Below are positions 4,164-35,428 of a stretch of 36,498 nucleotides of DNA, one piece after another; position 1 is the stretch's first letter; each line of letters begins with the position of its first letter. The position numbers and the translations under genes were made by a program. Below the pieces are notes generated by a model. It made no database searches and was not told where the DNA came from. It saw only the letters and a list, made by a program, of their open reading frames with translations. The stretch is from Gammaproteobacteria bacterium (GTDB taxonomy: Bacteria; Pseudomonadota; Gammaproteobacteria; SZUA-21): assembly GCA_003233075.1 (NCBI GenBank), contig QIKQ01000056.1:1-36498 (forward strand), written 5' to 3'.

Positions 4164-6362
4164 TCATAATGCTCGAAGTAAATTATTTGATTTGTTTTTT
4201 GAATCGTCTTCAGTGAAATCAAGGACTATTTGTTTAAGATTATTAAGGTTAAGAACGTACGCTATTGAGCCTGTATCTAGGACTGTAATACTATCGAATA
4301 AAAGATATTCTAATTCTAAGCTACTGGTGTGGGCTAAGCAAATATCAATCAGATTAATTATTTTATTAACGATAATAGCAAAGTTAATCCCGCCTTTAGA
4401 AATAATAATTATGTACTCTGTTTCTTTGCTTGTTGAGTTTGAAAACTGTGCAGGTGGTAATAAATTGGATAATCGGAGATAAGGATAAATTTCTTTATTA
4501 TGATTTATATAGCCCTGGGCATCAGTTATAGAGTTTTTGTAAGCAGTTCCAGGGAATGAATCCAGAATTGATTCTTGTTGGGTTAACAACAATGATTCAC
4601 CGACATTCACCAGTAAGTAAGGTGCTTCTGGTTTTTCGAGGGGAATACTTATTTGAAAAATCGTACCTCGATTCTCTTCCGAAAAAACCTTAATACTGCC
4701 GTGAAGTTCTCGAATGTTATTACGTACTACGTCTAGACCCACTCCGCGACCTGATAAATTAGTTGCCTCCTGGCAAGTAGTAAAGCCAGGTTCAAATATC
4801 AAGTTGAGTATTTCACTCGATGTTAAATTAACACTTTTATCAATAATTCCTATTTTTATGGCTCTACTCATGATTTCACTTTCACTAATTCCTTTGCCAT
4901 CATCTTGTATTTCGATTTGAATTTCACCTTTAACCCGTCTCGCTTTTAAGATAATGATTGCTTGGCTATTTTTTCCTTTCTTTAATCTTTCTTCACTCGA
5001 TTCTATGCCATGAGCAATTGCATTTCTAATTAGATGCAATAGTGGATCACAAATTTTGTCTAAGATAGACTTACTAATCCTGATTTCTTCGCCCTCAGTT
5101 TTAAGAACTATATTTTTATTATGCTTATGATTGGATTCGTATATAAGCCTTTTAAAGCGGCTAAACACTTCTTTAACATAGGTTGTATTTAACTGCTTCG
5201 CTTGATTTCGTATCTGAATAATTTGTTTAGTCACCGATTCGGAAAAGTTATCAAACTGATCAAGCTCAATTTGACCTGATCTTTGATTAACGGACCAGTA
5301 AACCATAAGCTCTTCAATTTGAAGTACGAGTGAGTCAAGTTTAGCCGGAGCAATGCGTAAACTTACAGAGTCAATTATTTCAATTTCTTTTATTTTGGCT
5401 TGTTTATCGAGTGCAGCTGAAATAATTTCAGGATGTACTAATTTTTGTTCTACCAATAGCTGACCTAGCGGCTGAATATTTGAATTATCAGTAATTGGAG
5501 TGCTTTGCTTTTCTGACTGGAACCTCAGGGTATCTTCCAATTCTTTTCGAGTTAAGGCTCCACTTGAGACTAATAGCTCTCCAATTCGAGTGTCATCTTC
5601 AGGTAGGGATTTTATAATTTGTGAATAATGTGAAATACTTGCACGAGGTGGTAACATGGCAATATATGAAATTTGGTTGATTGCTTCAAATACGTGCTCT
5701 AATTCTTGTCGAGCTAACTTAGTTTCAAAGTCAATCTCAAATCCTAAATAACATTGCAGAGGGTCAAATTGATTAAGATCAGGAAGTAAATCGTATATTG
5801 ATGTTATGTGTACTATAGTTCCGATTGAATTTAAATAATCAAAAAATTCCAATGGGTCTACATTCTGTTTAAATGTGTTAGTTTCAAATCGAATTGAAAA
5901 ATGCCAGTAATGTGAACTTACTGAGCTAGGATGCGCATCGGTTGCAGATTGTTTATCTACTTGTTGAATGTTGCTTGCATCGCATATGAAGTGATCTAAA
6001 GAGTTTTTAAGAAGGGAATTAAGTTGCTTAACATCTTGCTCTAATTCTTCTTCATCTATTGCTCGTTTAACTAGGAGACGGAGATGATCAGTACTGGATA
6101 AAAGTATTGAAACTAGGTTTTCGTCTAGTCGCAATGAATTATTTCGAATACATTCCAATAAGTTCTCTATGTGATTTGCGAAAGAGACTACTTGCTTGTA
6201 AGAAAATAGATTTGATGCACCTTTTAGTGTGTGTACGGCTCGAAATAGATCATTGATTAGTTTTTTCTTGTTTGGTTCCGATTGTACGGTTAACAAAGCA
6301 TCTTCCATGATCAATAGTAAATCATTACATTCTTGTTTATATGTTTCTTTTGGATGATTCAC
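4164..6362 (-). CDS. cheA: Chemotaxis-type histidine kinase CheA (Hpt, linker with MshEN-like motifs, dimerisation, HATPase_c, CheW-like)
   Basis: Hpt motif AVHTLKGAS, N-box HLIRNAIAHGIE, G1 DDGKGI, G2 GRGVGLDVV and a C-terminal CheW-like region. GTG start at 6360-6362. Confidence 0.9.
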   Translation of the reverse strand: MNHPKETYKQECNDLLLIMEDALLTVQSEPNKKKLINDLFRAVHTLKGASNLFSYKQVVSFANHIENLLECIRNNSLRLDENLVSILLSSTDHLRLLVKRAIDEEELEQDVKQLNSLLKNSLDHFICDASNIQQVDKQSATDAHPSSVSSHYWHFSIRFETNTFKQNVDPLEFFDYLNSIGTIVHITSIYDLLPDLNQFDPLQCYLGFEIDFETKLARQELEHVFEAINQISYIAMLPPRASISHYSQIIKSLPEDDTRIGELLVSSGALTRKELEDTLRFQSEKQSTPITDNSNIQPLGQLLVEQKLVHPEIISAALDKQAKIKEIEIIDSVSLRIAPAKLDSLVLQIEELMVYWSVNQRSGQIELDQFDNFSESVTKQIIQIRNQAKQLNTTYVKEVFSRFKRLIYESNHKHNKNIVLKTEGEEIRISKSILDKICDPLLHLIRNAIAHGIESSEERLKKGKNSQAIIILKARRVKGEIQIEIQDDGKGISESEIMSRAIKIGIIDKSVNLTSSEILNLIFEPGFTTCQEATNLSGRGVGLDVVRNNIRELHGSIKVFSEENRGTIFQISIPLEKPEAPYLLVNVGESLLLTQQESILDSFPGTAYKNSITDAQGYINHNKEIYPYLRLSNLLPPAQFSNSTSKETEYIIIISKGGINFAIIVNKIINLIDICLAHTSSLELEYLLFDSITVLDTGSIAYVLNLNNLKQIVLDFTEDDSKNKSNNLLRAL

Positions 6363-6720
6363 TACTATTGCCGTAAATAGCCGTCTGATAATATGTATGT
6401 CGTTTGTAAATATTTATATTCTATTGGAGTAATTTTTTCATTCATATTTGTAAGCTTATTCGTTTGCCAAAAGGCAGATCTGCTGTATAAAGTGATCTTT
6501 CCTAGTATGTATTTGCGGCTATACCCAAGAGATTCTTTAGAAAATAGAGTATTTTTGCGACTTATATTGGAGTAAGTATAGTCGTGAAGAATATTCTGCA
6601 TAATTGTCAGGTTATTGACCTAAGCTGTTTGCTTGGATTAAGTTATTGCGACTAAGCTAGCAATGGTCATTATTCTATATTATTATTACTTTGAATGTGG
6701 ACTTTTACATTTTCAGTAAG

Positions 6721-7347
6721 ATGATTGATGAGAAATTAAATATCGAAAATTTAACTCAAAAGTTAGCTTATTATTCAAAACAATATCTTGGCTCTGGGGA
6801 AGCGCCGAAAAATAATGCAGTTTTATGGCTAACGGGTTTATCTGGGTCGGGTAAAACGACAACAGCACTAAAATTACAAGAAGCAATTAGAAAATTGTCC
6901 TATAAAGTTTGTGTGCTCGACGGCGATGAAGTCAGAAAAAACTATACATCAGATCTTAGTTTCACAGATGAGGACAGAATTGAAAATATCAGGCGAGTTG
7001 CGCAGTTGAGCAATGCAATCGCGAGTCAAAATGCGATCGTTATAGTTGCCTTAATCAGTCCGTTTAAAGAAAATAGACTACTGGCTAGAGAAACAAATCA
7101 GGATAATGTATTTCTGGAAGTATATTGTAAGGCTCAATTAGAGCAGTGCGAGAAACGTGACCCGAAAGGCCTTTACAAAAAGGCGCGCTTAGGTGAAATT
7201 GCGTATTTTACTGGAATAGATTCTCGTTATGATGTTCCGCAAAACCCCAGTATTTCGCTTGATACGGTTAGAAGCAGCCCAAGTATAAATGCAGCTCGAT
7301 TAATAAACTTAATGGTCGAATGCAATATTATTAAAGCATTTAGTTAA
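6721..7347 (+). CDS. cysC: Adenylylsulfate (APS) kinase
   Basis: P-loop LTGLSGSGKTT, then LDGDEVRKN, DLSFTDEDRIENIRRVAQ and RDPKGLYKKARLGEIAYFTGIDSRYDVP, the canonical CysC pattern. The ORF track begins at TTG 6691. ATG 6721 gives a more typical length. Confidence 0.88.
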   Translation: MIDEKLNIENLTQKLAYYSKQYLGSGEAPKNNAVLWLTGLSGSGKTTTALKLQEAIRKLSYKVCVLDGDEVRKNYTSDLSFTDEDRIENIRRVAQLSNAIASQNAIVIVALISPFKENRLLARETNQDNVFLEVYCKAQLEQCEKRDPKGLYKKARLGEIAYFTGIDSRYDVPQNPSISLDTVRSSPSINAARLINLMVECNIIKAFS

Positions 7348-7696
7348 TTATTTTTGGAATTCTTTTTCTTTTTAAAATAGCAATCAGATATTTATTATTT
7401 TGATAAACTGTAATAACCTCCCAACCATTTTTTCCATGCCTGTTTAATTTTCTAATAAATTTTTTATTAAAACCACGCTTTATTTTTTGTGAGACCCATT
7501 TGTATTTCCATTTTGGCCTAACATATTTCGTTTTTTTGCTTGTTACAGCTTCTTGATGTTTATTTTCAGAATGTTTTTCTTCAGATTTTATATTTTCAGA
7601 TTGTTGATTTTCTGACTTTGGTTTTGACCAAACATGTGACGAGGCAAGTATTGCAACTATTGCTAGATTTATAAGTAGTGTTTTAGTAGAGGTCAT
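7340..7696 (-). CDS. Hypothetical secreted Lys-rich protein with a DUF4177-like C-terminus
   Basis: Has a signal-peptide-like N-terminus (LLINLAIVAILASSHVWS). The C-terminal GKNGWEVITVYQNNKYLIAILKRK resembles DUF4177 (assignment from memory). Its 3' end overlaps the cysC 3' end by 8 bp (convergent). Confidence 0.55.
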   Translation of the reverse strand: MTSTKTLLINLAIVAILASSHVWSKPKSENQQSENIKSEEKHSENKHQEAVTSKKTKYVRPKWKYKWVSQKIKRGFNKKFIRKLNRHGKNGWEVITVYQNNKYLIAILKRKRIPKIIN

Positions 7697-7882: not shown

Positions 7883-8524
7883 TTAATCTCGGTTTAATGT
7901 AATGCAGTGCGATTTTAAGTCTTCATAGGCGTTAGATAGCTGATTGATTAGCTCATCTGCAGTTGTAGACTTAGGCAGTGCATCGCCTACAACCACGTCA
8001 CAATTGAAAGGAACAAAAAGCGCTTCCCCTCTGGGTAGTGATCTTCCTAAGCCGTGAATCATGACCGGTGTTATTTTTGTGTCATTACGGTCCTTTATTA
8101 AATGATAGATGCCTTTTTTTAATTCGCTTGTTTTTTCAGGTTCGCCACGCGTACCCTCGGGAAACAAGATTAATATATCCCCTTGATCAAGTGCATCATG
8201 GCAAGCATTAAGCATCTCGTCGCGATTATTTGAATTCTTTCGGTCTATCGGAATTATGCCAATAATATTAAGAGAAAACCAAGCTAGAAAGTTTTTAGAT
8301 AGAAAATAGTCCGCAGCGGCAACCGGACGCAGTCGGTGAATTTTTGCCAGTGGGTAGAGGCTAATTAGTACCAAGGTGTCCAAATGACTATTATGATTAG
8401 CAGCTATAACCGCTGGTCCAGAGGTAGGTAGTTTGTGACGAAAACGACTGTTTAATCCAATGATAACTAAGACTAGCGGCTTGACTAGTAACGCAAAAAA
8501 TAATATTTTGAGGACTCGACTCAT
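7883..8524 (-). CDS. Lysophospholipid (1-acyl-sn-glycerol-3-phosphate) acyltransferase, PlsC family
   Basis: Has the HX4D motif (NHNSHLDT) and FPEGTRG motif. 213 aa with an N-terminal TM segment. Confidence 0.88.
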   Translation of the reverse strand: MSRVLKILFFALLVKPLVLVIIGLNSRFRHKLPTSGPAVIAANHNSHLDTLVLISLYPLAKIHRLRPVAAADYFLSKNFLAWFSLNIIGIIPIDRKNSNNRDEMLNACHDALDQGDILILFPEGTRGEPEKTSELKKGIYHLIKDRNDTKITPVMIHGLGRSLPRGEALFVPFNCDVVVGDALPKSTTADELINQLSNAYEDLKSHCITLNRD

Positions 8525-8528
8525 GTAT

Positions 8529-9476
8529 TTAGTAGTGTAAATAGTAGAGATAATGAAAAAACAAGGGTGCGGTATAAAGTAAGCTATCCATCCTGTCCAG
8601 TATGCCTCCGTGGCCTGGAATTAAACTGCCACTGTCTTTTATGCTCAGGTCTCGCTTAACAGAGGATATGACCACATCGCCTATAAATCCGGCGAGTGAG
8701 ATGATCATGCCAGCGCCAAAACTTTCTAATGTATTGAGTGGCGTAAGAGTAGGGCCTATAAAGCCTGAGAGTAAGGTAATGCTTGCGACGCCTCCAAAAA
8801 AACCAGCCCAGGTTTTATTAGGACTTACTTTAGGAATAATTTTATCCTTACCGAGTAATTTACCCCAAAGGTATTGGCACACATCATTAAACTCAGTCAT
8901 TAGAATCAAAAATAAAACTAAACCCATGGGTCCAGCATTTAAGTTTTTTTCTGGAAGTACAATTAAATAAGCAATATGACTGATCGAAAATACGGTAAGC
9001 ATAGCGACCCAGTGCAATACACCGGCTGCTTTTATAAATCCATCTGTAGCACCATTGATTACCATCCGCATGGGCATGAACAAAAATAGATAGACTGGAA
9101 TAAATATTATGAACATACCATACCAGCTGTCGGCAACCCAATAATATTGAAAGGGAATAGAAATATATACCCAAAATAATACATTTCTATCGATATGCCG
9201 AGTGGGTATTATAGAAATAAATTCTTTTAGGGCGAGAAAGCTTAGAAAGCCGAAGAAGATAATCGCGGTGTTTTTACTTATGGATAGGAACACAAATAAT
9301 AAACCGATAATCCACCACCATGAAATGATACGCTGTTTTAATTCGGTATGATTTTTTTCCGGATTTTTGTATTTAAAAATAATCGTTACAATAGTCGCGA
9401 TTGACAACAGGCCAATAACAATTATCATGGCATAGAGTGAATGGGAAGGAATTTTAGCTAGAAATTGCATATTCAA
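8529..9476 (-). CDS. cdsA: Phosphatidate cytidylyltransferase (CDP-diacylglycerol synthase), CdsA family
   Basis: Carries the CdsA signature SSVKRDLSIKDSGSLIPGHGGILDRMDS and is a polytopic membrane protein. It lies 4 bp from the downstream plsC-type gene. Confidence 0.9.
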   Translation of the reverse strand: MNMQFLAKIPSHSLYAMIIVIGLLSIATIVTIIFKYKNPEKNHTELKQRIISWWWIIGLLFVFLSISKNTAIIFFGFLSFLALKEFISIIPTRHIDRNVLFWVYISIPFQYYWVADSWYGMFIIFIPVYLFLFMPMRMVINGATDGFIKAAGVLHWVAMLTVFSISHIAYLIVLPEKNLNAGPMGLVLFLILMTEFNDVCQYLWGKLLGKDKIIPKVSPNKTWAGFFGGVASITLLSGFIGPTLTPLNTLESFGAGMIISLAGFIGDVVISSVKRDLSIKDSGSLIPGHGGILDRMDSLLYTAPLFFHYLYYLHY

Positions 9477-9519
9477 AAAGTGAGCTCAAAGCTAAAAAAA
9501 AAATAGTGATGCGAATTAT

Positions 9520-9984
9520 TTAGACTAGACTCGCTGTTATTAATATCGCAAGCTGTATTACTAAGCTTAAGGCCTGTTTTTTGAATAATTTCATGCATGC
9601 TTGTAAACGTGTTTTTATATCTCGAGTATTTTGTTTGCCATCAACTCGCTCTGGGATTAACTCCCGGATTAAATTAAGATCAACAAGTGTTTTATCCAGT
9701 GAGATTAATTCTTCATCGCTTACATGTTCCTGGCAAGCAAGATGATTAATAATCGCGGCATCGAAGCCTACTCGAATTGCTAATATTGTCTCATAGATCC
9801 CCAGTAAAATCACAATTATAAGTGTCACTAGAAGTGTAGTGGAAAGCTTGTTTATTGTAGTAAAATAAATTAATAAAAATATTGCGATAAGTGTCAAAAA
9901 TAATGAGAAATTATTAACTTTAGTGTGTTGCTCTAAAAAACTAGCGAAAATTTTAAGCTGTATTTTTTCTTGGCTATTACTCAT
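9520..9984 (-). CDS. Hypothetical small membrane protein within the lipid operon
   Basis: 154 aa with 3 hydrophobic segments. It overlaps the upstream gene by 8 bp (9977-9984), suggesting translational coupling. Confidence 0.6.
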   Translation of the reverse strand: MSNSQEKIQLKIFASFLEQHTKVNNFSLFLTLIAIFLLIYFTTINKLSTTLLVTLIIVILLGIYETILAIRVGFDAAIINHLACQEHVSDEELISLDKTLVDLNLIRELIPERVDGKQNTRDIKTRLQACMKLFKKQALSLVIQLAILITASLV

Positions 9985-11320
9985 TGCTTTCTATACTAGT
10001 AAAATTTACGACTTTTTCTAAGACCATGTGATCAGATTCCTTTATTAAGATCCCTGGTCGTGCCTTTTTTACAATATTTATTGCTCTATTAATACTTTCA
10101 GCTCGCTTGCTGATTAATAACCAGGCTATTAACGCTAAAGTGCTACGTGAATAACCCAATGCACAGCATACTAGTAGGGGATGGCTGCGGTCTGATTGCT
10201 CAATTAATCCTGCTGCGGAAATTAGGGTCTGAACATTTGGAGTGATTAAATCAAGTGTTGGAATGGCATGCCAAATAGCGTTTGTTTTTGGTGCGCTAAA
10301 TTCGGCAGTCATATCAATTACAGTCGAATAATTAGCTAGGTTTATTTCGCGTATTGTTGGAAAACGACCTAAAAAAACATTATCAATAATATGATTGGCT
10401 GGTTTAATTTTTAGTGCCCATAAGCGAGAATTAATCCTTGCAGCGATTAAGTAAGGGTATAGCAACCATTGAGCGGCCAAGCTAATTAGACCAGACCTAT
10501 TTTTTTGGAATCCGGAGGCACCGATAAACAAATAGAAAAAACTTAACAATAGTAACGAGCTAGCGGGCCAGAACAGCCAAAGAGCAGTACCGCCAAGCAG
10601 TGTTGCAATTAAAGCAAATAAACTAGCAGCAATCGCATAAAATAAGAAAAAGCGTTTTCGGCGGCTCTCCTTAGTTATATGAATGTGCCGAATAGGCACT
10701 TCGCCAATATTCGGCCAAAGCCAGATACAAAGAAAACCAAGTAACATGCCGGTTGGTATATCAATAAAATGATGCTGATAAGTTGTCAGTACCGATATGC
10801 CGATTAAAATGGCGAGTGCATGACATGGCCAAAGTAAATATTTAGGCAAATGCCGCACATACAAAACCCAAAGTAGTATGAGTAAGGCGATGTGTAACGA
10901 AGGTGCTTGATTAAATGGTTTATCAAAGCTGTTTAGTGTCGCAAACATAAATCCAGTTGTGCCAGTTGACTCAGGACGATCAAAACTGAATGCGAGAGGG
11001 AATAAAATAAAGCAAATCACCGCGATTATTTGTGTGCAAAGCAAGCGTTTCGCATGGCGATCGAGTTCTAACTTAGATTTGCAGATAAAGACTGATATGA
11101 CATAGAAAAGATCGATTAACCAATAGGGGATAATGGTCCAGGCAATAAAGGGTATTTGCTTTTCCCAAGCAAAAACCATTGTTGGCACATCGTTTTGCTG
11201 AGCTGCAAGCCAGTTCGCAAAACCATAACTAAGGAAAAAAAAAGGTCCTAAAAATAATAGCCACAGACTTGCTCGACGCCAGAGACGTAAATTTTCTTGC
11301 TCGGATGATTCAACACTCAT
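9977..11320 (-). CDS. Fusion protein: N-terminal PAP2-like (sphingomyelin/IPC-synthase-like) membrane domain plus C-terminal dual-specificity (CX5R) phosphatase domain
   Basis: PAP2-superfamily motifs APSLH and YQHHFIDIPTG lie in a multi-TM N-terminal half. The C-terminal PTP loop is LLVCCALGYSRST (C-x5-R-S/T). Confidence 0.82.
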   Translation of the reverse strand: MSVESSEQENLRLWRRASLWLLFLGPFFFLSYGFANWLAAQQNDVPTMVFAWEKQIPFIAWTIIPYWLIDLFYVISVFICKSKLELDRHAKRLLCTQIIAVICFILFPLAFSFDRPESTGTTGFMFATLNSFDKPFNQAPSLHIALLILLWVLYVRHLPKYLLWPCHALAILIGISVLTTYQHHFIDIPTGMLLGFLCIWLWPNIGEVPIRHIHITKESRRKRFFLFYAIAASLFALIATLLGGTALWLFWPASSLLLLSFFYLFIGASGFQKNRSGLISLAAQWLLYPYLIAARINSRLWALKIKPANHIIDNVFLGRFPTIREINLANYSTVIDMTAEFSAPKTNAIWHAIPTLDLITPNVQTLISAAGLIEQSDRSHPLLVCCALGYSRSTLALIAWLLISKRAESINRAINIVKKARPGILIKESDHMVLEKVVNFTSIESNE

Positions 11321-11329
11321 AGTCAGGTG

Positions 11330-13135
11330 TTAGTTTTTTCTAGCAAGGCACACAGTGAATATGCCAAATTCGTCGATTCGTTGCTCGATTTTGCTAAAAC
11401 CTTTACTTTCTACCAGCTGATCCATTTCCTGCTGAGTGCGTCTACGCATAACCCAAGCCTGCGCTTGACGATGGCTGGTAAGTGCACGGGCGATCATTTC
11501 AAGTTGAGGATGCCATGGCTGGCCAGTATAAATAAGATAAGAACCAGACTCTAGTGTTTGAGAAAAGCCCTCTAAAGATTGTAAAATCAAATCATTTTCT
11601 GGGAACAATTCGAATAATCCGGAGACAATTCCCAGTGTTGGCGTCGTCTCCAAATTGTCAAAGCTAGAAACATCAAATGCATCGGCTTTTACAAATTTTG
11701 CAGTGGAGCTTAAGCTTTTTTCGACTATGAGTTCACTACCCTGAGTTATATTCAAATTACTGTAATCACGCAATAATATTGAATCTGCTTTTATCTCACT
11801 GTGTTGAATTGCCTCAAGTATGTAGCGTCCATGACCGGCAGCGATGTCCATAATATGAATTGGTTTATTTTCATTTTTAAGCAGTTTCATCGAATGTCGG
11901 ATTAATTCTTCCAAATTAATTTTTCGTTGTCGTATACCGCGCCAACCTATTGAGTTGAGATAGTTATTGTCGATAAATCGTCCGATAGGACCTAAGCCGG
12001 AGGCATTATTTTTATAAACATAATCGAGAGCACTGCCTGAATCGAAGCCAGTTTTTTGGCCGAGTTTAATGCCATCAGATAACAAGGCGCTGAATTTTAA
12101 GCTCATTCGTACGCTTGCCCAGGCAAAACCACGCAGCGAAAAAGAGGAAAGTGGTGTCGCTAAGGTGTCAGACTCGTATCGCGTAAAGCCTGATTTATCC
12201 GCTTCCATGAGTGAGGTTCTATTGAAGGGCTCAGCAAAACGTTGCTGAATAAAATCCCGCATTTTATCGATTACGATAACGCGATCTTTTTCGCCTAAGG
12301 TGTCGTGGTAAAAACCTTTGAGGACATGTCTTTCTTTAATACTTGATCCAAGATTTTCGTAAAATACATGTTGTGGTTTATGATGTACCACCCAATCCGA
12401 ACCTGAAATTAATAACTGTGTTGGCACCGTAATGGCAGCTGCATCACAAACAATTCTATCGGCTGTTTTGTATAACTCGAGTAGAATGTTATTCGAAATT
12501 GCTCGAGTTATCAGTGGGTCGGCTTCAAAGGATTTAATTCGTTCTGGGTCGTGACTTAAAAATTTTGCTTTAACATAGCTGTTAACAAAAAAATTACCTT
12601 TAAACTTTTGTTTAATTGCCAAGGCAGTACGTGCAAAGGGCACGTATAGTTTTACTTTAAAAGCAGGCGATGCTAGCACCATGCAACGTATTTTTGGTGC
12701 ATAGTCATGCACCCAGGTTGAGATTAAGACTGCACCGACGCTTTGTGCGATTATCGCCATATCTTCGACTGAAAAATCATAGCTTACTGAAATATGATCG
12801 ATCAATGTTTGAACATCTCGAACTGAACAGCTGAAGCTTGGACTGTAACCACGATCTCCTGGGGATTTGCCGTGGCCTCGAGCATCCCAGGCAAAAAATT
12901 CGTAGTCTGGAAGCTTTAGTTCATCGACGACATGAGCCATGCGGCCTGAATGCTCATGGCCGCGATGGAAAAGGATAATTGCGCCTTTCGCTACTCCTGA
13001 CTCCGTGGGCCAGTAACGATAAAATAAATCGACGTCATCGTGAGTCCTAAAACTCTTCTCTTCAACCTTTCTTAGTGGTGGACTGACTTTATCTGTCATA
13101 TTTCCCATATTAATTCCTTGTGTTATCGAAAGCAT
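11330..13135 (-). CDS. Bifunctional alpha/beta hydrolase (lysophospholipase/monoglyceride-lipase-like) / class I SAM-dependent methyltransferase
   Basis: The N-terminal half has ILFHRGHEHSGR (HG..EH..R box) and nucleophile elbow IAQSVGA. The C-terminal half has methyltransferase motif I, IMDIAAGHGRY. The start may be one of several Met codons near 13105-13135. Confidence 0.82.
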   Translation of the reverse strand: MLSITQGINMGNMTDKVSPPLRKVEEKSFRTHDDVDLFYRYWPTESGVAKGAIILFHRGHEHSGRMAHVVDELKLPDYEFFAWDARGHGKSPGDRGYSPSFSCSVRDVQTLIDHISVSYDFSVEDMAIIAQSVGAVLISTWVHDYAPKIRCMVLASPAFKVKLYVPFARTALAIKQKFKGNFFVNSYVKAKFLSHDPERIKSFEADPLITRAISNNILLELYKTADRIVCDAAAITVPTQLLISGSDWVVHHKPQHVFYENLGSSIKERHVLKGFYHDTLGEKDRVIVIDKMRDFIQQRFAEPFNRTSLMEADKSGFTRYESDTLATPLSSFSLRGFAWASVRMSLKFSALLSDGIKLGQKTGFDSGSALDYVYKNNASGLGPIGRFIDNNYLNSIGWRGIRQRKINLEELIRHSMKLLKNENKPIHIMDIAAGHGRYILEAIQHSEIKADSILLRDYSNLNITQGSELIVEKSLSSTAKFVKADAFDVSSFDNLETTPTLGIVSGLFELFPENDLILQSLEGFSQTLESGSYLIYTGQPWHPQLEMIARALTSHRQAQAWVMRRRTQQEMDQLVESKGFSKIEQRIDEFGIFTVCLARKN

Positions 13136-13165
13136 TTCGAAGATTGGGTTATCCTCTGTGTTAGC

Positions 13166-13783
13166 CTAATTAGACTCTAATTCTTTTAGTGCATTTCTTA
13201 TTCGATTAACTATAGTTAATCCTATTAAAAGTGCTGTTAGCGGCATGAGCCAATATAACCAGTTTGGTAAATTGGTTGAAAAAGCGAGCCATATCGCAAG
13301 CACGGAAAACAGTAACGCTCGGTCGCTTTTGCCCATGGGTCCATCGTATCGCCTAGTTGCACCAATACTTGTACCAATGACACCTGCAAATTCACTTAGT
13401 ATTGCTAGAAAAATTACTAATAATACAGGAATCAAAGTGAATGGAGCTATTGCGACAAATGGAAAATAAAGCGCTGCATCTGAAACAGCGTCGCATAATT
13501 CATTTAGATACTCGCCCAGTTTACTTTGTTGATTAAACTCTCTAGCGAGCATACCGTCTATCGCATTTAGCGCCATGCGAATCAACATCCATATGGGAAA
13601 CAAGATAAACAAGAAATGATAATTTGAAAAAGCATAAAGCAGACTGCCCAGTAAGATCGATCCTATAGCAGCAGCGAGGGTGACTTGATTAGCGCTAATG
13701 CCTCTCTCTGCTAGTTTTTTGACTGTAGGTCGTAGTAAGGCTTGAAATTTTGGCTTAATGTCGTATAGAGTCATTTTGTCCAC
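13166..13783 (-). CDS. CDP-alcohol phosphatidyltransferase family protein (variant motif)
   Basis: 205-aa multi-TM protein with NAIDGMLAREFNQQSKLGEYLNELCDAVSD, matching D-x2-DG-x2-AR-x8-G-x3-D-x3-D except that the first and third Asp are Asn. Confidence 0.85.
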   Translation of the reverse strand: MDKMTLYDIKPKFQALLRPTVKKLAERGISANQVTLAAAIGSILLGSLLYAFSNYHFLFILFPIWMLIRMALNAIDGMLAREFNQQSKLGEYLNELCDAVSDAALYFPFVAIAPFTLIPVLLVIFLAILSEFAGVIGTSIGATRRYDGPMGKSDRALLFSVLAIWLAFSTNLPNWLYWLMPLTALLIGLTIVNRIRNALKELESN

Positions 13784-13912
13784 TTAAGATGTATTTGAAT
13801 AAACATCAACTAACAGACTGTTAACTCTAATCAAGTCTAGTTAATTAGTTAAATTATTTGATGTCGTTATATTACCCTAAATTTCACCGAAATACAGTTT
13901 ACTATGCGGCTT

Positions 13913-15529
13913 CTATAATAGACCTTCAATTGGCAACAAGCTTATAAGGGTAATACTAAGATGTTTTAGTAAGCTTACCTCTGGCTCTTGATTGCTATTC
14001 TTGGTTCGATCGTTTGTTTTCCAGGTGATTTCATATTCTTCATTGCCGTCATCAACTTCGTCTATAGAATTAGTTTTTCTATAACTAAGTGCGTAGGCGT
14101 TTTCTTTGCTGCTTAATCGTCTAAATGTTTGATTCATTTCCGTCGATAATTTTTCGCTGTCGATCATAATGCTTATTTCAGTATTTAAGTATCGAGATCG
14201 AGGTGTTAAATTAACTGAGCCGACATAAAGATAACGATTATCAATAATAATTGACTTGGCGTGTAAACGTGATACTGGTTTTTTTTCAAACCAAGTGATT
14301 TTAGATCGTTTCTTTTTAAGTGAATTACGTTTAAATTCGTATAAACTAACTCCATTCTTCAGTAAATTTAAACGGTATCGCTGATAACCTCCGTGTGATA
14401 AAGAAAAATCGTTTGCTGCAAATGAGTTAGTTAAGACAGATACCCTAACGCCTTTTTTCTTTAATTGTTTAGTCCATTTAAGACCAAATCGTTGAGGAAC
14501 AAAATACGGTGTAATAATATTTACATTTGTTTTTGCTTTCGCCATATGTTTTGTCATAATGTGTTCTAGAAACTTTTCATTGCTTTTTTTAATGCCACGA
14601 ATCTTATTCGGCGGATCATAAAGGACTTGATAATTTGCCCAAGTAAAATAGCGATTACTATTTTTAATTTTGTTAGCAATATTTAGTTTTTCAAGCGCAC
14701 GCCAATATTTAGTATGTTTAAGTTTTAAATAATGTGACTTGAGCTCTTTACGTGTGTCTTTGTATGTGATCCGAAGAAATAGACGTCTATTTAGTTTTTT
14801 AATATTGACTGCCCATTTCGCATTCCAATAGTCATCAAAGCTTTTTGACACTGTCTTTACGACAGAGCCTATAGCCAAAACACCTAAATCTCGATACAAA
14901 TAACTAGGCTTAGCACTATAATAAGCGTCGCCGATATTGCGACCACCAACAATAGCGATGCTGTTATCAGCAACAAATACTTTGTTGTGCATGCGTCGAT
15001 TCGCACGTTGAAAACTACTTAATAAGGCGATCGTACGTAACCACTTACGTTGACTTATCGGATTATATAATTTGACGTCAATATTTGGATGCTGGGCGAG
15101 GGTCGCTAAATTAGCGTTACCACCGCGAGCGACAAAATCATCGAGTAATAATCTTACTTTAACACCTCTATCTGCAGCTTTTAATAGATGGTAAATGACA
15201 GCTTTGCCGGTGTTATCTTGATGCAAGCTCCAATACTGTAAGTCTAATGATTTTTCAGCCTTGTTAGTTAAATAAATAATGGCAGCTAAGGCATCCATGC
15301 CATCGTGTAATAAATGAAAACCACCTTTATTAGAATTTGAGGCAGAATGCGAGCGTTCGATTAGTTTCGCCAGACTTGTTTCAGTAACTTGTGTCGTGGC
15401 ATAGCTCAATTTTGTTGGCTTTTTAAATTGACTAGAGCAACCAGTCAAGGCAAGTGAGCAGGCAATTATAAATAAGCCGGGCTTTCGCATAAGCGATCTT
15501 AAATTAATCAGTGTTTTATTAGTGTCCAT
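13913..15529 (-). CDS. Phospholipase D / cardiolipin-synthase-like lipoprotein (two HKD motifs)
   Basis: Has a lipobox LALTGCSS and two HKD motifs, HNKVFVADNSIAIVGGRNIGD and HAKSIIIDNRYLYVGSVNL. Confidence 0.88.
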   Translation of the reverse strand: MDTNKTLINLRSLMRKPGLFIIACSLALTGCSSQFKKPTKLSYATTQVTETSLAKLIERSHSASNSNKGGFHLLHDGMDALAAIIYLTNKAEKSLDLQYWSLHQDNTGKAVIYHLLKAADRGVKVRLLLDDFVARGGNANLATLAQHPNIDVKLYNPISQRKWLRTIALLSSFQRANRRMHNKVFVADNSIAIVGGRNIGDAYYSAKPSYLYRDLGVLAIGSVVKTVSKSFDDYWNAKWAVNIKKLNRRLFLRITYKDTRKELKSHYLKLKHTKYWRALEKLNIANKIKNSNRYFTWANYQVLYDPPNKIRGIKKSNEKFLEHIMTKHMAKAKTNVNIITPYFVPQRFGLKWTKQLKKKGVRVSVLTNSFAANDFSLSHGGYQRYRLNLLKNGVSLYEFKRNSLKKKRSKITWFEKKPVSRLHAKSIIIDNRYLYVGSVNLTPRSRYLNTEISIMIDSEKLSTEMNQTFRRLSSKENAYALSYRKTNSIDEVDDGNEEYEITWKTNDRTKNSNQEPEVSLLKHLSITLISLLPIEGLL

Positions 15530-16271: not shown

Positions 16272-16476
16272 TAATAAATAATTAGTACTGGGTTGTATAT
16301 TTTGTTTATTAATAGTTTGTGGAATGACGGATACAGCGTCTAATTTCGGTTTACGTTAACAATTAGGGTTTTTGCAAGGGATTTGCACATAATCATCTTA
16401 GATTTGTCATAGCTTTGCCATTTTCTAGCCTTAGTTATTGCTTAGAATTCGCTTAACTAATGTTAAGGAGAATGCA

Positions 16477-18009
16477 ATGAACACAGTTGATGAAGAATCA
16501 GCAGAGACAATCGTTGAATCTACAGATGAAGCAGTAAAAGAGGCAGGATTAATTGACACAAAGGGTGGGCTGGCCTTTTTACTTTGTGTTTCAATTGGAC
16601 TAGTGGGTGGATATTTTTTTAATATTGATGGCTACGGTTTAAATCTTAGCGTGTTTGCCGCATTGATTAGCTTATGCTATGTCTTTATCTATAAGCCAAA
16701 CCTTTTAAGTAAAAAAAATCTAATTCTCGCGCCATTCGGCGTTTTTTTTGTGTTTGCTTTTAGTTGGCATAGCTCAATGACGCTGTTCAGCTTAAACTTG
16801 ATTGGATTATTTCTGGTATTCCTAATTGGTTTCAACGTTGACGTCTTTAATAAAGGTTTTAATATTGAGTTTCGAAAATCATTGAGGATTTTTACTAGTA
16901 TGTTTGGCTATGCTTTGGTGAGCCCGGTCAAATTAGTTGCCTCTGATTTTAAACAGCTTAAAAAAGTAGGATCGTCATTATCAATCGTACCAAAGATTTT
17001 GCGTGGTTTGCTGTTTTCAATTCCCTTTGTGGTCATATTTGTCATTTTATTGGGGTCGGCTGATTTACGTTATTTTAAGTTTATTGAAACTAGTTTAAGT
17101 TTTGATCGAAATACTTTTAAATACCTACTGATATCTCTTTTGTCATTTATTGTTGCTGTTTGGTTTTTACGTGGAAAATTTAAGTCAAACTTTTCGAATA
17201 GAGGAGAAAGCTTAAGCGAGGGAATACGAGCGGGCGCGATCGAGGTTTGCACAGTCTTATCGCTTGTTAATATTGTATTTCTGTCATTTATTGTGATTCA
17301 ACTCGGTTATCACTTTGGTGATAACTCACTGGTAATACAAGGTAAGGGCATTACGTACGCAACTTATGCGAAGCAAGGATTTTTCGAGCTAGTGATAATC
17401 GCTTTAATCGCTTTGCCATCACTTTGGTTGCTTGAATGGACTGTACGTGATGCTAGAAAGGGTGAAAAAACTGCATTTAGAATAATTACTTTAATAACTA
17501 TCGTTTTGGTTGGACTGATAGCAGCCTCGGCAATTCATAGGTTAAGCCTTTATACAGAAGCTTATGGATTAACTGAAATTCGATTTTATTCGAGTGCCTT
17601 TTTATACTGGATAATTGGTTTATTTTTGATTTTCATGACAACTGTATTACGTGGCAAACGCAATTATTTTTTGTCCAGTGTATTAGTCAGTTTCATGGTC
17701 ACAGTAGTACTCTTAAATACGATTAATCCAGATGCAAAGATTGCAAAAACGAATATTAATAGATCAGATAAAACTAGCCTCGATTTAGAATATATTTATT
17801 CGTTAAGCCCTGACGCAATTCCGGCTATATTAGATGAAATGAGCCCAGCCAAAAGCCTGACCGTATTGGAAGCTAATCGTGTTAAATGCAAGATTCGTAG
17901 TTATATACAAAATAATTATTCTTTTCAGGATTGGCGAATTTGGAATATTTCCACCTACAAAGCTAAACAAGCTGGCGAAAAAGCTAGCTTAGATAAGCTG
18001 GGCTGTTAA
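16477..18009 (+). CDS. Polytopic membrane protein (DUF4153/DUF4173-like; family from memory, unverified)
   Basis: About 510 aa with more than 10 hydrophobic segments. AAGGAG at 16465-16470 lies 6 nt before ATG 16477. The ORF-track TTG at 16438 lacks an SD. Confidence 0.7.
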   Translation: MNTVDEESAETIVESTDEAVKEAGLIDTKGGLAFLLCVSIGLVGGYFFNIDGYGLNLSVFAALISLCYVFIYKPNLLSKKNLILAPFGVFFVFAFSWHSSMTLFSLNLIGLFLVFLIGFNVDVFNKGFNIEFRKSLRIFTSMFGYALVSPVKLVASDFKQLKKVGSSLSIVPKILRGLLFSIPFVVIFVILLGSADLRYFKFIETSLSFDRNTFKYLLISLLSFIVAVWFLRGKFKSNFSNRGESLSEGIRAGAIEVCTVLSLVNIVFLSFIVIQLGYHFGDNSLVIQGKGITYATYAKQGFFELVIIALIALPSLWLLEWTVRDARKGEKTAFRIITLITIVLVGLIAASAIHRLSLYTEAYGLTEIRFYSSAFLYWIIGLFLIFMTTVLRGKRNYFLSSVLVSFMVTVVLLNTINPDAKIAKTNINRSDKTSLDLEYIYSLSPDAIPAILDEMSPAKSLTVLEANRVKCKIRSYIQNNYSFQDWRIWNISTYKAKQAGEKASLDKLGC

Positions 18010-18143: not shown

Positions 18144-19061
18144 ATGAAACTAGACAAAATTACAGTGATTTGTGCACTTATATTGATTTGTTTTTCGAGC
18201 TTTGCAAATCCAAAGTTTCCTGGTTTAACTGGCCAGGTCGTTGATCAAGCAAAACTCCTTAGCCCATCTACTAAAAAATCACTTACTCTTCAGCTAGCCA
18301 AACACAGGTTACTAACGACCAATCATATAGTCGTTGTAACGGTGAATAGTTTAGGTTCGGATACAATTGAACAGTACGGATTAAAGTTAGGTAACTATTG
18401 GGGGATAGGTCGTCAAAGTTCCAACCGTGGCTTGTTACTTCTAGTGGCACCCAAGGAACGAAAAGTTAGAATTGAAGTGGGTTTAGGCTTGGAAGCTTAT
18501 TTAAGTAACTCTAAAGCTCAATCCATAATTGATCGAGTTATACTTCCGAAGTTTAAGGCCAATAATTATGAGCAGGGAATAATCCATGCAGTGAATTCGA
18601 TCATTTTGCATCTAGAAAGCAAAGTAAATGTAGATAAAACTATCGCTGAATTAGATACTAAAAAAGTGAGTGATGATGGTTTTAATATAAATCCTGACTC
18701 ATTTAATGTCAAAGTAGCCTTGATCATGATCTCATTTATAATTATTTTAATTGTTGGTGGCTTTTATGTTTATCAAGTTCGAAGTCATTTTTACGCTTAC
18801 CTAACCGTTTTTTTAACCTCACTTGCTGCCTATTACTTAATTTCATTATACTTTTTCTTATCAATTTTAGGCGCGATGCTAACAGTTGTGCTTGTTATGT
18901 TTGTTGCAGGTGCTGGAGGCAAAGGTGGCGGTATGGGAGGCGGTTATAGACACTATCATGGTCACATGGCAATTGGTGCGGGAGCAGGTTATTCCAGTGG
19001 TGGAGGTTCCTTTGGTGGAGGAGGTTCCTTTGGTGGTGGCGGAGCATCGGGAGGATGGTAA
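18144..19061 (+). CDS. TPM-domain protein, YgcG-like (signal peptide, TPM domain, TM segments, Gly-rich tail)
   Basis: Has the TPM pattern LTGQVVDQAKLLS...IVVVTVNSLG...WGIGRQSSNRGLLLLVAPKERKVRIEVGLGLE. The C-terminal GGGSFGGGGSFGGGGASGGW is encoded by an 18-nt tandem repeat (19002-19036). Confidence 0.85.
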   Translation: MKLDKITVICALILICFSSFANPKFPGLTGQVVDQAKLLSPSTKKSLTLQLAKHRLLTTNHIVVVTVNSLGSDTIEQYGLKLGNYWGIGRQSSNRGLLLLVAPKERKVRIEVGLGLEAYLSNSKAQSIIDRVILPKFKANNYEQGIIHAVNSIILHLESKVNVDKTIAELDTKKVSDDGFNINPDSFNVKVALIMISFIIILIVGGFYVYQVRSHFYAYLTVFLTSLAAYYLISLYFFLSILGAMLTVVLVMFVAGAGGKGGGMGGGYRHYHGHMAIGAGAGYSSGGGSFGGGGSFGGGGASGGW

Positions 19062-19062
19062 T

Positions 19063-19683
19063 ATGAAGCAATTTATTAGCGAACAAGATAGAATCAATAT
19101 TGAAAAAGCGATTGGAAAATTTGAGAATAAAACCAGTGGCGAAATAGTCGCGGTGGTCGCCCCAATGAGTGATAATTATTACTATATTCCAACACTCTAT
19201 GCTGCTTTATTTTCAATGCTTTCTCCTAGTTTACTATTGTTACTGGGTTTTCAACTGAGTGTTGGTACGGTTAGTTTGATTCAGGTTCCGGTGTTTGTTG
19301 CTCTCGTTTTTTTATTTCGCTGGCGTCCCATTATGTTCAAATTGGTCCCGCCGAACGTGCGAGCACAAAGAGTGAGACGGCTTGCTCTTGAACAATTTTA
19401 CCAGCAAAAACTTTATCAAACAGAAGAGCGTTGCGGTATTTTATTTTTCGTTTCAATCGCAGAGCGGCAAGTTGAAATTATTGCCGACAAAGGGATAAAC
19501 GAACGTGTCCAAGCTGACACCTGGTCAAATATTATCGAGCTATTTGTGAGTAAAGTTCGCACCGGGCAGGTCGCCGATGGTTTTATTAAAGCGATTGATG
19601 AATGCGGCAAGCAGCTAGAACAATATTTTCCTGCTACTGCTAAGGCAAAAAATCAAATTCCGAATCATTTAGTTATTTTATAA
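19063..19683 (+). CDS. TPM-domain (DUF477-type) membrane protein
   Basis: MKQFISEQDRINIEKAIGKFENKTSGEIVAVV...GILFFVSIAERQVEIIADKGI matches the second TPM protein usually paired with YgcG. ATG 19063 lies 1 nt after the upstream stop. The longer ORF-track start (18886) reads the Gly-rich repeat in another frame. Confidence 0.82.
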   Translation: MKQFISEQDRINIEKAIGKFENKTSGEIVAVVAPMSDNYYYIPTLYAALFSMLSPSLLLLLGFQLSVGTVSLIQVPVFVALVFLFRWRPIMFKLVPPNVRAQRVRRLALEQFYQQKLYQTEERCGILFFVSIAERQVEIIADKGINERVQADTWSNIIELFVSKVRTGQVADGFIKAIDECGKQLEQYFPATAKAKNQIPNHLVIL

Positions 19684-27291: not shown

Positions 27292-28194
27292 ATGCGTAAA
27301 CTTGTTCTAATTCTTGTTCTAATTTTTGTCTTTAATATTTCACTTCTTTTTGCGCAAACAAATAATAAGTCTAAGCGAACTTATGTTAGCGGACTACGAT
27401 ATGTTACTAATGGACCAAGCCGTGAGCAAGCGGACCCACTGTATGTAACTGTGAACGTCAAATTTTCGAGAAATATAAAAACTGTTGGTGGCGCAATTAA
27501 ATATGTAATAGCTAGATCCGGTTATCATATTAGTTCCGGTAATTTGTCTAGTAAAGGGACAAGGCTTTTAATGAATTTACCTTTACCTCATGTGCAACGT
27601 AGATTAGAACCAATGACTCTTAGGCAAGCATTACGGGTACTCATTGGCGAAGCGTATAGGATTAAGGTTAATCCAATTAGCCGTTCAATAAGTTTTGGGG
27701 TTAAACCAAAATATGAAAAAATGTTAAGCGCTGCCATTTCAGATTTTTATTCGAGAAATAAAAAATTAGTAGTTTTAGATAAAAGAATTAGAAAAACTAA
27801 AAGTAAATCGAGTAAAGTCGAATCGAAAAAACAATCTAAGAAAAAAGCTAAGGAGAGGAAAAAAAGTAAGGCCAAAATAGCAAACAATATGGATAAGCGT
27901 TATAAAATTATAAATCCGATAAAATCATACGCTGTCAGAATAAAGTCGCCTAAAGTTTCGATTAACCAGGCTCTCGTCGCCATTTTTGAAAACAATCAAA
28001 ACATGTTCCACAATAATAATATGTATCTATTACGAACGGGTGCAAAAATAAAGATGCCGCCTAATAATTTACTTAATAAATATAAGACTGACGAAGCAGA
28101 TTACATGGTACTAAATCACTTCCATAAACTTAGGAAATCTTACCATAAGTCAATGCCAGTTAAAACTCGACTTGCGAAACAATATTCGGAGTAA
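27292..28194 (+). CDS. pilL: ICE protein PilL (PFGI-1 class) with a Lys-rich linker and C-terminal FimV/LysM-like motif
   Basis: The N-terminal region YVSGLRYVTNGPSREQADPLYVTVNVKF...TVGGAIKYVIARSGYHI...LPLPHVQRRLEPMTLRQALRVLIGEAYRIKVNPISRSISF fits the conj_PilL pattern. The C-terminus is described in the findings. Confidence 0.75.
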   Translation: MRKLVLILVLIFVFNISLLFAQTNNKSKRTYVSGLRYVTNGPSREQADPLYVTVNVKFSRNIKTVGGAIKYVIARSGYHISSGNLSSKGTRLLMNLPLPHVQRRLEPMTLRQALRVLIGEAYRIKVNPISRSISFGVKPKYEKMLSAAISDFYSRNKKLVVLDKRIRKTKSKSSKVESKKQSKKKAKERKKSKAKIANNMDKRYKIINPIKSYAVRIKSPKVSINQALVAIFENNQNMFHNNNMYLLRTGAKIKMPPNNLLNKYKTDEADYMVLNHFHKLRKSYHKSMPVKTRLAKQYSE

Positions 28195-29439: not shown

Positions 29440-29457
29440 TAATAACTAAAGTCGCTA

Positions 29458-30300
29458 ATGATAGGGATCGAAAGAAATATAAATATGGCCGTTAAGAATC
29501 TTATAAATCTAGTTCTTCTTGTTTCGGTAATTTTATTGTCGGTTTTTAGTTCATTTATTTACGCAAAAGAAAATAATACAAGTTTCAAGAAAACTAAATA
29601 CAAAGATTCACTACTTAAGCAAAGTGAAACTAAAAAAAGCATATATCGAAATGCAAAAATGTGGGGTATTACGATTGAAGACTGGGCGCGATATAAAGAA
29701 ATAATGAAAGGCCCTCAGGGTATTTGGACACCAAATTTAGACCCACTAATGGCTTTAGGTTTAAACGCAAAAACAGAAAATGAACGACGGCGTATTGCAT
29801 TAATACAGCTTAAACTTGAAGAAAAAAGACTTGTTCGTATGTTGGCCTATGATCGAACTTATAAGAAAATAGAAAAAGAATATTTTGGTAATCAAACATT
29901 AGTGGACATTAAAAAACTAAAACGAAGAATAACATTAGCTAAGAAAGCGAGAAAGATTCGAGCACAAGACAAACAAATGCAAATAGGTGACCGACTTCTT
30001 CTATTTGTTTCCTTGAAGGGTTGTGAGCAATGTCGACAAACTGCTTATCGTGCAATAGATTATGTTCGAGGTAAAAAAGGAGTTGGCGTTGACATCTTTT
30101 TTGTGGGGACAACGAATAAAGAAAAAAATGAAATACAAGCATGGGCTAAATCTATGTCAATAAGTTCGCTTTCGATTAAACATGGCAATGTATCACTTAA
30201 TTATGATCGGGGTACGTTTAAACGCTTAACCAAGGACCAAGGTGTACTTCCTTTAGTTATTCGTAAGCGTGGTAGTAAATTAACACATGAGGTCTTATGA
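29458..30300 (+). CDS. ICE protein, PFL_4693-like (TIGR03759-type), thioredoxin-like CxxC
   Basis: Has WGITIEDWARYKEIMKGPQGIWTPNLDPLMALGLNAKTENERRR followed by a GCEQC (CxxC) motif. The family is assigned from memory of this ICE lineage. The start could be ATG 29484 (MAVKNL..., signal peptide). Confidence 0.7.
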   Translation: MIGIERNINMAVKNLINLVLLVSVILLSVFSSFIYAKENNTSFKKTKYKDSLLKQSETKKSIYRNAKMWGITIEDWARYKEIMKGPQGIWTPNLDPLMALGLNAKTENERRRIALIQLKLEEKRLVRMLAYDRTYKKIEKEYFGNQTLVDIKKLKRRITLAKKARKIRAQDKQMQIGDRLLLFVSLKGCEQCRQTAYRAIDYVRGKKGVGVDIFFVGTTNKEKNEIQAWAKSMSISSLSIKHGNVSLNYDRGTFKRLTKDQGVLPLVIRKRGSKLTHEVL

Positions 30301-30309
30301 CAGGAAAGG

Positions 30310-34256: not shown

Positions 34257-34287
34257 CTGAATTACTAATTATTAAGGAAACACTAAC

Positions 34288-35416: not shown

Positions 35417-35428
35417 TGGAATGAAACA

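Follow-up and report, generated by a model that had tools for sequence, protein, structure and literature searches.

Does a compact block of genes with phospholipid-synthesis domains represent the housekeeping pathway, gathered by chance in one place, or a lipid pathway of its own? The question is raised by a run of six minus-strand genes on contig QIKQ01000056.1 (assembly GCA_003233075.1) of a gammaproteobacterium of the SZUA-21 lineage, of which we analysed a stretch of 36,498 nucleotides, hereafter called the window. An earlier note on this DNA, made from the sequence alone, had read the six genes as a self-contained and undescribed operon for a phospholipid head group, with a phospholipase D (PLD)-type lipoprotein gene just upstream. 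We find that the locus is almost certainly the accessory 'ynb' lipid cluster in its complete form, with six genes: ynbA, ynbC, ynbD, one for a small membrane protein, ynbB and one that is PlsC-like.

Identity of the cluster

The proteins of the window were compared by BLASTP with those of the Escherichia coli K-12 reference operon ynbA-ynbB-ynbC-ynbD (b1408-b1411), taken from NC_000913. Four of them aligned over their full length, with YnbA at 47% identity (150 bits), YnbB at 43% (243 bits), YnbC at 54% (634 bits) and YnbD at 37% (258 bits). The six co-directional genes proposed earlier are real and their coordinates exact, and every one of the domain assignments was backed by a Pfam search (Table 1). 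The claim of an undescribed system did not survive: the cluster is already present in E. coli K-12 as ynbABCD, where it is catalogued and has been partly studied (PMC6362211, PMC7018664, PMC7413402), and SEED names the ynbC product 'putative lipase in cluster with phosphatidate cytidylyltransferase'. The window is one further copy of a recognised but functionally unsolved cassette.

That these are simply the housekeeping genes of phosphatidylglycerol and phospholipid synthesis (plsC, cdsA, pgsA and a phosphatidylglycerophosphate (PGP) phosphatase), clustered here by chance, is very improbable. The domain families are indeed shared with the housekeeping enzymes, and the matter was judged from the window alone. 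Yet the scores against the NCBIfam models of the housekeeping enzymes all fall far under their cut-offs: 98 bits against 385 for the CdsA equivalog NF008635, 21.8 against 109.1 for the PgsA equivalog TIGR00560, and 69.9 against 102.95 for the PlsC model TIGR00530. The matches to the E. coli housekeeping enzymes are weaker as well. Only the C-terminal half of the window YnbB (135 residues) aligns with CdsA, at 100 bits, while YnbA reaches 33 bits against PgsA and the acyltransferase 28 bits against PlsC, so that YnbA and YnbB are far nearer to their Ynb counterparts than to PgsA and CdsA. Sub-threshold equivalog scores and weaker housekeeping matches together bear out the earlier suggestion that the cdsA-, plsC- and pgsA-like genes are dedicated paralogs. 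Furthermore, the E. coli genome holds both sets, with cdsA, pgsA and plsC at loci apart from ynbABCD; there ynbB encodes a non-essential CdsA paralog that is insufficient for bulk phospholipid synthesis and unable to substitute for cdsA (PMC6362211), and YnbD cannot substitute for PgpA, PgpB or PgpC. Housekeeping phosphatidylglycerol synthesis was rejected on these equivalog scores and comparisons. The six genes also adjoin one another in the other loci that were fetched and in the two nearest relatives, which argues that their arrangement is not due to chance. Thus, chance adjacency and housekeeping synthesis are both effectively excluded.

All seven minus-strand open reading frames listed in Table 1 were confirmed. 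Counted upwards from the gene at 7883, the spacing within the cluster is 4, 43, -8 (an overlap), 9 and 30 bp, with the PLD-type gene standing 129 bp further on, and the ynbA, ynbB, ynbC and ynbD orthologs all lie on a single strand within a span of 5.9 kb. Two starts probably lie inside the open reading frames. For ynbA, the ATG at 13774 is the probable start, since the resulting N-terminus (MTLYDIKP) matches that of E. coli YnbA (MTLYQIKP). For ynbC, the protein-database gene call (entry P0001) has 592 residues, which puts the start at Met10, near position 13108.

Table 1. Genes of the ynb-type cluster and the adjoining upstream gene, with positions in the window.
Gene and product	Positions	Strand	Evidence
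ynbA ortholog, CDP-alcohol phosphatidyltransferase family, membrane protein	13166-13783	-	CDP-OH_P_transf PF01066, 3e-9
ynbC ortholog, soluble alpha/beta hydrolase-S-adenosylmethionine (SAM) methyltransferase fusion	11330-13135	-	Hydrolase_4, 1.7e-68; Methyltransf_20, 7.8e-139
ynbD ortholog, PAP2-type membrane domain with predicted C-terminal Cys-phosphatase	9977-11320	-	Pfam PAP2_3, PAP2, DSPc
Small membrane protein, 154 residues	9520-9984	-	Three hydrophobic segments; hidden Markov model built from 15 homologs
ynbB ortholog, CdsA-paralog CDP-diacylglycerol synthase	8529-9476	-	CTP_transf_1 PF01148, 1.1e-65
PlsC-family lysophospholipid acyltransferase (putative)	7883-8524	-	Acyltransferase PF01553, 7.5e-22
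PLD-family lipoprotein with two HKD motifs, neighbour only	13913-15529	-	PLDc_2, twice

Conservation of the six-gene unit

Is the cluster a unit beyond this contig, as the earlier note had asked? All window proteins were searched by tblastn against 80 genome loci with 10-kb flanks. Because this sample was seeded with the query peptides, which favours close relatives and over-represents Variovorax and Shinella, the independent evidence amounts to about ten distinct lineages rather than to the raw count; the calling of open reading frames in the compared loci was crude, and unreliable in those of high GC content. Neighbourhood conservation was nonetheless evident in the 80 loci, in the nearest relatives and on a Shinella plasmid. 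ynbA adjoins ynbC in every one of the 80 loci, and contigs of sufficient length always hold ynbD, ynbB and the PlsC-like gene as well; the PlsC-like gene is thus co-located in 64 of the 80, namely those with a long enough flank. The small membrane protein was found by its hidden Markov model in 71 of the 80 loci, always directly after ynbD and on the same strand. In the nearest relatives and in Shinella, gene callers also place a protein of 148-159 residues at this position.

The six-gene cassette spans alpha-, beta-, gamma- and zeta-proteobacteria, with permuted gene order and unrelated flanks. Writing s for the small-protein gene and P for the PlsC-like gene, the order is A-C-D-s-B-P in the window and several gammaproteobacterial lineages, A-B-P-C-D-s in Mariprofundaceae and Sedimenticolaceae, and A-C-D-s-P-B in alpha- and betaproteobacterial lineages, of which Shinella and Agrobacterium have ynbA in reverse orientation. 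The two nearest relatives, whose YnbC is about 80% identical, carry the six genes in the window's order between entirely different flanks, and a Shinella plasmid annotated by PGAP has the identical six-gene set under generic names. Homologs of YnbC itself number in the thousands at 60-81% identity, from gamma-, beta-, alpha- and zeta-proteobacteria and from one Thermoanaerobaculia genome bin, the short contig of which holds ynbA, ynbC and the start of ynbD. The natural unit is therefore six genes, not four, and the E. coli operon, which is without the small protein and the acyltransferase, is a reduced core.

Gene fusions tie the members together further. A natural protein of 807 residues joins YnbA to the hydrolase and methyltransferase domains (P0084/P0247), and an independent fusion of 927 residues (P0325) begins with a YnbA domain that carries the same Asn-substituted motif described below. 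Variant clusters retain YnbA, YnbB, YnbC and YnbD-like proteins, with a patatin-like phospholipase and a short-chain dehydrogenase replacing the PlsC-like gene. One such locus (L096, 6970-14629) encodes the 927-residue fusion, a CdsA-like protein, a 592-residue PAP2_3/Cys-phosphatase protein, the patatin-like phospholipase and the short-chain dehydrogenase, and has no PlsC-like gene; another (L089, 1-4428) has a similar set in which the genes are separate. In several high-GC betaproteobacterial loci (L035, L025, L042 and L070, around 11600-13570) the small-protein frame is continuous with ynbD, with no stop between them, so that YnbD and the small protein may be fused in these species.

Two genes next to the cluster in the window were considered as members and set aside. 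The PLD-type lipoprotein, which the earlier note had pointed out upstream on the same strand, has the lipobox LALTGC and two HKD motifs (HNKVFVAD and HAKSIIID) in its translation, and scores 124.5 bits against the cardiolipin-synthase equivalog TIGR04265, which has a cut-off of 290. A homolog stands beside the cluster in 0 of the 80 other loci and in neither of the nearest relatives; being absent at every other locus, it is a mere neighbour. The downstream DUF4177 gene was likewise rejected, as neither the 80 loci nor the nearest relatives have a homolog of it next to the cluster. Nor did any recurrent neighbour that would hint at the head group, such as genes for sugar or inositol-phosphate synthesis, glycosyltransferases or flippases, appear across lineages, within the limits of the crude open reading frame calls.

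Active sites and the lipid they may make

We then asked what the active sites say about the chemistry. YnbA matches PF01066 at 37.9 bits, above the gathering cut-off of 22, and carries the motif N-x2-DG-x2-AR-x8-G-x3-N-x3-D-x3-D, found unchanged in all 81 family members. This departs from the canonical D-x2-DG-x2-AR-x8-G-x3-D-x3-D in having Asn (N70 and N91) for the first and third Asp, positions set by alignment to the mycobacterial phosphatidylinositol-phosphate (PIP) synthase 6h53 (fDmlDGamAR...G..lDatcDrisD); the second and fourth canonical Asp are kept, along with a further Asp four residues on. In the CDP-alcohol transferase family the four Asp bind the catalytic metal or metals, and the fourth is the proposed base. 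As the two Asn are invariant, the swap looks like a selected change rather than decay. By family and by solved structure, YnbA is nearest to archaetidylinositol-phosphate and PIP synthases; the top NCBIfam match is the archaetidylinositol-phosphate synthase NF040950, at 80.3 against a cut-off of 180, and the PIP synthase NF045883 gives 47.5 against a cut-off of 170.

The AlphaFold2 model of YnbC (pLDDT 84) has an N-terminal domain that Foldseek places with human, Mycobacterium tuberculosis and archaeal monoacylglycerol lipases, at target-normalised TM-scores of 0.83-0.88. It exceeds the Hydrolase_4 threshold at 230.9 bits, and its triad Ser132-Asp247-His277 is invariant among homologs; by modelled fold and triad, it is a monoacylglycerol lipase-type alpha/beta hydrolase. 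The C-terminal domain keeps its SAM-binding motifs. Its Methyltransf_20 family is narrow: in a set of 1.84 billion representatives, just 785 clusters at 50% identity match it, and it consists mostly of the same fusion. Where the gene stands alone, its contig is short or its surroundings are unrelated. When the methyltransferase domain was searched as a profile against PDB sequences, nothing significant came up; Pfam gave only generic SAM-methyltransferase matches besides, and in a Foldseek search with the whole YnbC model hydrolases filled the list. The haloarchaeal pathway for polar-lipid head groups, including PGP methyl ester, is itself only partly resolved (one review), and an analogy with that lipid was left as a mere idea, no methyltransferase having been found for comparison.

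In the model of YnbD (pLDDT 91), an eight-helix PAP2-type membrane domain, for which PAP2_3 gives the best Pfam score, precedes a C-terminal domain. The invariant residues of the membrane domain are PSLH143, H183-H184, D187 and R115-P116. Measured against the PAP2 motifs C1 (K-x6-RP), C2 (PSGH) and C3 (SR-x5-H-x3-D), YnbD keeps the C2 His (H143), the C3 His and Asp (H183/H184, D187) and RP116, and is without the C1 Lys and the C3 Arg. The C-terminal domain, with invariant D357 and C386-x5-R392, scores 30.7 bits against DSPc, slightly under the cut-off of 33.5, and Foldseek matches it to Tk-PTP, dual-specificity phosphatases and PTPMT1 at target-normalised TM-scores of 0.75-0.80. PTPMT1 is the mitochondrial PGP phosphatase. 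With its C-x5-R P-loop, general-acid Asp and predicted fold, this domain is a dual-specificity Cys-phosphatase as judged from the model. Helix boundaries in the model, together with hydropathy and the placement of Lys and Arg residues, suggest an N-in topology, in which the loops bearing the PAP2 motifs would be periplasmic and the Cys-phosphatase cytoplasmic. YnbD is the fourth PAP2 protein of E. coli, where it is without an assigned function (PMC7413402).

The window YnbB has the signature S-x2-KRD-x3-KD-x-G-x4-GHGG-x-LDR-x-DS, conserved in all 72 YnbB-family sequences, and its E. coli ortholog makes CDP-diacylglycerol in vitro, weakly (PMC7018664). The product of 7883-8524 has one N-terminal anchor helix, the motifs H44-x4-D49 and FPEGxR, both invariant in 54 of 54 sequences, and an NCBIfam match also to the acyltransferase domain of Aas; it is an acyltransferase of the superfamily and a putative PlsC. 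The small membrane protein, with two hydrophobic segments near its N-terminus and one near its C-terminus, has no family in Pfam or NCBIfam.

Since every catalytic motif is intact, the genes stay together from lineage to lineage and YnbA and YnbC are sometimes a single polypeptide, we suggest that the unit is one pathway acting on one lipid. Our preferred reading, held tentatively at a little under an even chance, is a self-contained branch of glycerophospholipid synthesis parallel to the housekeeping one, that is, a dedicated CDP-diacylglycerol route to a lipid with a modified head group. The PlsC-like enzyme would acylate a lyso-lipid to phosphatidic acid, which YnbB, like its E. coli ortholog in vitro, would convert to CDP-diacylglycerol. 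YnbA may then transfer the phosphatidyl group to a ubiquitous and probably phosphate-bearing acceptor, by analogy with its inositol-phosphate-using relatives; because the cluster brings along no gene for a head-group precursor, a common metabolite is to be expected as acceptor. The terminal phosphate would be taken off in the cytoplasm by the Cys-phosphatase domain of YnbD, and YnbC could methylate the head group with SAM at the membrane surface, a step for which its fusions to YnbA speak, while its lipase-like domain might edit or remove an ester bond. At the periplasmic face, the PAP2 half of YnbD would have as its substrate either the product itself or a lipid phosphate formed as a by-product. 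The kinship of YnbA to PIP synthases, the PTPMT1-like and lipase folds, the fusions and the conservation of the unit are all consistent with such a route. The complete path to phosphatidyl-X seen in the earlier note is plausible in outline, complicated by the invariant Asn at two catalytic Asp of the transferase, and the note rightly stated that the sequence reveals neither the acceptor nor the final lipid.

Several observations weigh against this dedicated CDP-diacylglycerol route. Without two of the four canonical Asp, standard CDP-alcohol transfer by YnbA may be doubtful, and apart from the activity of YnbB the steps rest on family membership. No product has ever been observed, and the literature searched assigns none to the ynb operon. 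The data do not explain what the PAP2 site, the hydrolase domain and the small protein are for, the methyltransferase domain has no characterised or solved relative by PDB profile search or in Pfam, and the E. coli operon does without the PlsC-like and small-protein genes altogether. Overexpression of E. coli YnbD rescues neither a pgpA pgpB pgpC mutant nor mutants in the phosphatases of undecaprenyl pyrophosphate (C55-PP) (PMC7413402). This failed complementation weakens the analogy with PGP phosphatases that had been drawn for YnbD, and it suggests that the intermediate is probably not ordinary PGP from glycerol-3-phosphate chemistry.

The same active sites could serve a different purpose, namely a lipid or carrier cycle linked through diacylglycerol (DAG) pyrophosphate. 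YnbA would here join the phosphatidyl group to a sugar-1-phosphate or to inorganic phosphate, giving an X-PP-DAG (PP, pyrophosphate) comparable to the N-acetylglucosamine (GlcNAc)-PP-DAG proposed as the first intermediate of E. coli MPIase, and the PAP2 half of YnbD would return DAG-pyrophosphate to phosphatidic acid for re-activation after periplasmic use. We consider this unlikely. It would explain why overproduction of YnbB in E. coli raises the pyrophosphate-linked glycolipid MPIase and restores it under CdsA depletion, but deletion of ynbB does not lower the MPIase level (PMC6362211, PMC7018664, PMC11413397), and published synthesis of compound I is assigned to CdsA/YnbB (PMC6362211). Asn at the first and third Asp would remove negative charge just where an anionic nucleophile should bind, and PAP2 enzymes, whose motifs in YnbD are predicted to be periplasmic, typically act on lipid pyrophosphates (PMC7413402); YnbD, however, is no substitute for the C55-PP phosphatases. 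Moreover, in none of the lineages examined is the cluster accompanied by genes for a glycosyltransferase, a flippase or sugar activation, a cycle of this kind leaves the Cys-phosphatase, methyltransferase, hydrolase and acyltransferase without a role, and MPIase has been described in E. coli only whereas the cluster is widespread.

A remodelling module induced by stress such as cold or envelope damage, in which no new head-group class arises but an existing anionic lipid is made and re-tailored, for example by a eukaryote-type cardiolipin or phosphatidylglycerol route with deacylation and reacylation, has a similarly small chance in our judgement. Mitochondria make and remodel cardiolipin with Tam41, Pgs1, PTPMT1, Crd1, Cld1 and tafazzin, and the enzyme classes of the ynb cluster (CDP-diacylglycerol synthase, CDP-alcohol transferase, dual-specificity phosphatase fold, lipase-type hydrolase and PlsC-family acyltransferase) match this established pathway one by one. 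The variant clusters, in which a patatin-like phospholipase and a dehydrogenase take the place of the acyltransferase, suggest an interchangeable acyl-editing part, as remodelling would have it. Stress induction finds some echo in E. coli, where ynbB is cold-induced (PMC11413397) and the ynbA promoter, like other H-NS-silenced loci, is activated by BglJ-RcsB, an envelope-stress regulator (PMC3950696). Nevertheless, remodelling leaves the strictly conserved methyltransferase domain and the periplasmic PAP2 site without a function, the unit holds a single CDP-alcohol transferase, and the failure of YnbD to rescue the PGP-phosphatase mutant counts here too. Beyond these, the Asn-swapped YnbA, a phosphate-bearing acceptor and the processing by YnbD on two membrane faces could point to a glycerolipid class new to bacteria, a DAG-based counterpart of carrier or donor cycles whose head group is possibly pyrophosphate-linked or methyl-capped; to this bolder idea we also accord a low probability. 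Membership in anti-phage defence was rejected, since the ynb proteins tested found no match among the PADLOC models: there were 0 matches for YnbA, YnbC, YnbD and the small protein, and the PLD-type neighbour had generic PLD-domain matches only.

Surroundings and comparison with known systems

The rest of the window is a mixture of unrelated functions. An IS66-family insertion sequence occupies 412-2450, with the TnpB_IS66 Orf2 at 412-822, a DDE transposase at 873-2450 and a local GC content of up to 0.48. A stand-alone response-regulator receiver at 2621-2938 on the plus strand and a 732-residue CheA-like kinase (Hpt, HATPase_c and CheW) at 4164-6362 on the minus strand form a chemotaxis-type pair, separated by two open reading frames without a family. 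Immediately before the cluster, an adenylylsulfate kinase with an N-terminal extension of about 40 residues (6691-7347, plus strand), unlinked to the ynb cluster in other genomes, converges with an 8-bp overlap on the DUF4177 gene (7340-7696, minus strand), which encodes a small Lys-rich protein with an N-terminal hydrophobic segment.

Beyond the PLD-type gene, a DUF4153 membrane protein (16438-18009) lies immediately upstream of two TPM-domain open reading frames (18144-19061 and 18886-19683) that overlap by 176 bp in different frames; these could be one frameshifted gene, or adjacent TPM genes with a mis-set start. Four consecutive plus-strand open reading frames without a Pfam family (300, 414, 280 and 197 residues; 27292-30903), in a region of low GC content (0.32) and unusually strong AT skew (+0.23 to +0.26), stand directly upstream of conjugation genes. 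The latter (30791-36481) encode DUF2859, a TraD/TraG-like coupling protein (31414-33519), DUF4400, RAQPRD, DUF3487 and DUF2895 proteins. As such genes are typical of an integrative conjugative element or a plasmid transfer region, the window may border or include a mobile element. A scan of the whole window with Rfam returned 0 RNA families, and promoter and terminator scans were uninformative, being at or near the shuffled expectation.

Few multi-gene lipid pathways of E. coli K-12 still lack a known product, and the ynb cluster, which hundreds of other proteobacterial species also carry, is among them. The six-gene unit, the non-canonical transferase site, the phosphatase predicted to work on both membrane faces and the transferase-hydrolase-methyltransferase fusions offer experimental handles on it. 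If its product is a new lipid, the repertoire of bacterial membrane lipids would be extended, and the disputed role of YnbB in MPIase synthesis could be clarified.

How, finally, does the cluster compare with known systems? With E. coli ynbABCD it shares the four core orthologs, co-directional and tightly packed, and the same Asn-substituted YnbA motif; the order is A-B-C-D there, whereas the window has A-C-D-s-B-P with the small-protein and PlsC-like genes in addition. The PIP synthase/phosphatase route, as in mycobacterial PgsA1 and archaeal archaetidylinositol-phosphate synthase, resembles it in the top family and structure matches of YnbA and in a synthase-then-phosphatase logic that fits the cytoplasmic phosphatase domain of YnbD. 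It differs in that YnbA falls under the equivalog cut-offs and has Asn for the first and third Asp, in that the loci compared show no gene for an inositol-phosphate synthase alongside the ynb cluster, and in that the ynb phosphatase is a predicted Cys-based dual-specificity domain fused to PAP2.

The biosynthesis proposed for MPIase in E. coli shares the YnbB ortholog and the principle of a CDP-diacylglycerol-dependent side branch apart from bulk phospholipid synthesis, but its published model does without ynbA, ynbC and ynbD, and the ynb cluster is found far beyond enterobacteria. With E. coli PgpB, YbjG and LpxT, alongside which its E. coli ortholog has been aligned (PMC7413402), YnbD has in common the catalytic His, His and Asp of PAP2 motifs C2 and C3, while lacking the C1 Lys and C3 Arg and having a fused Cys-phosphatase. 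The mitochondrial cardiolipin pathway corresponds to the cluster class by class, through the PTPMT1-like fold, the lipase-type hydrolase and the PlsC-family acyltransferase; there is no sequence orthology between the two, and the ynb cluster adds a SAM methyltransferase and a PAP2 site predicted to face the periplasm.

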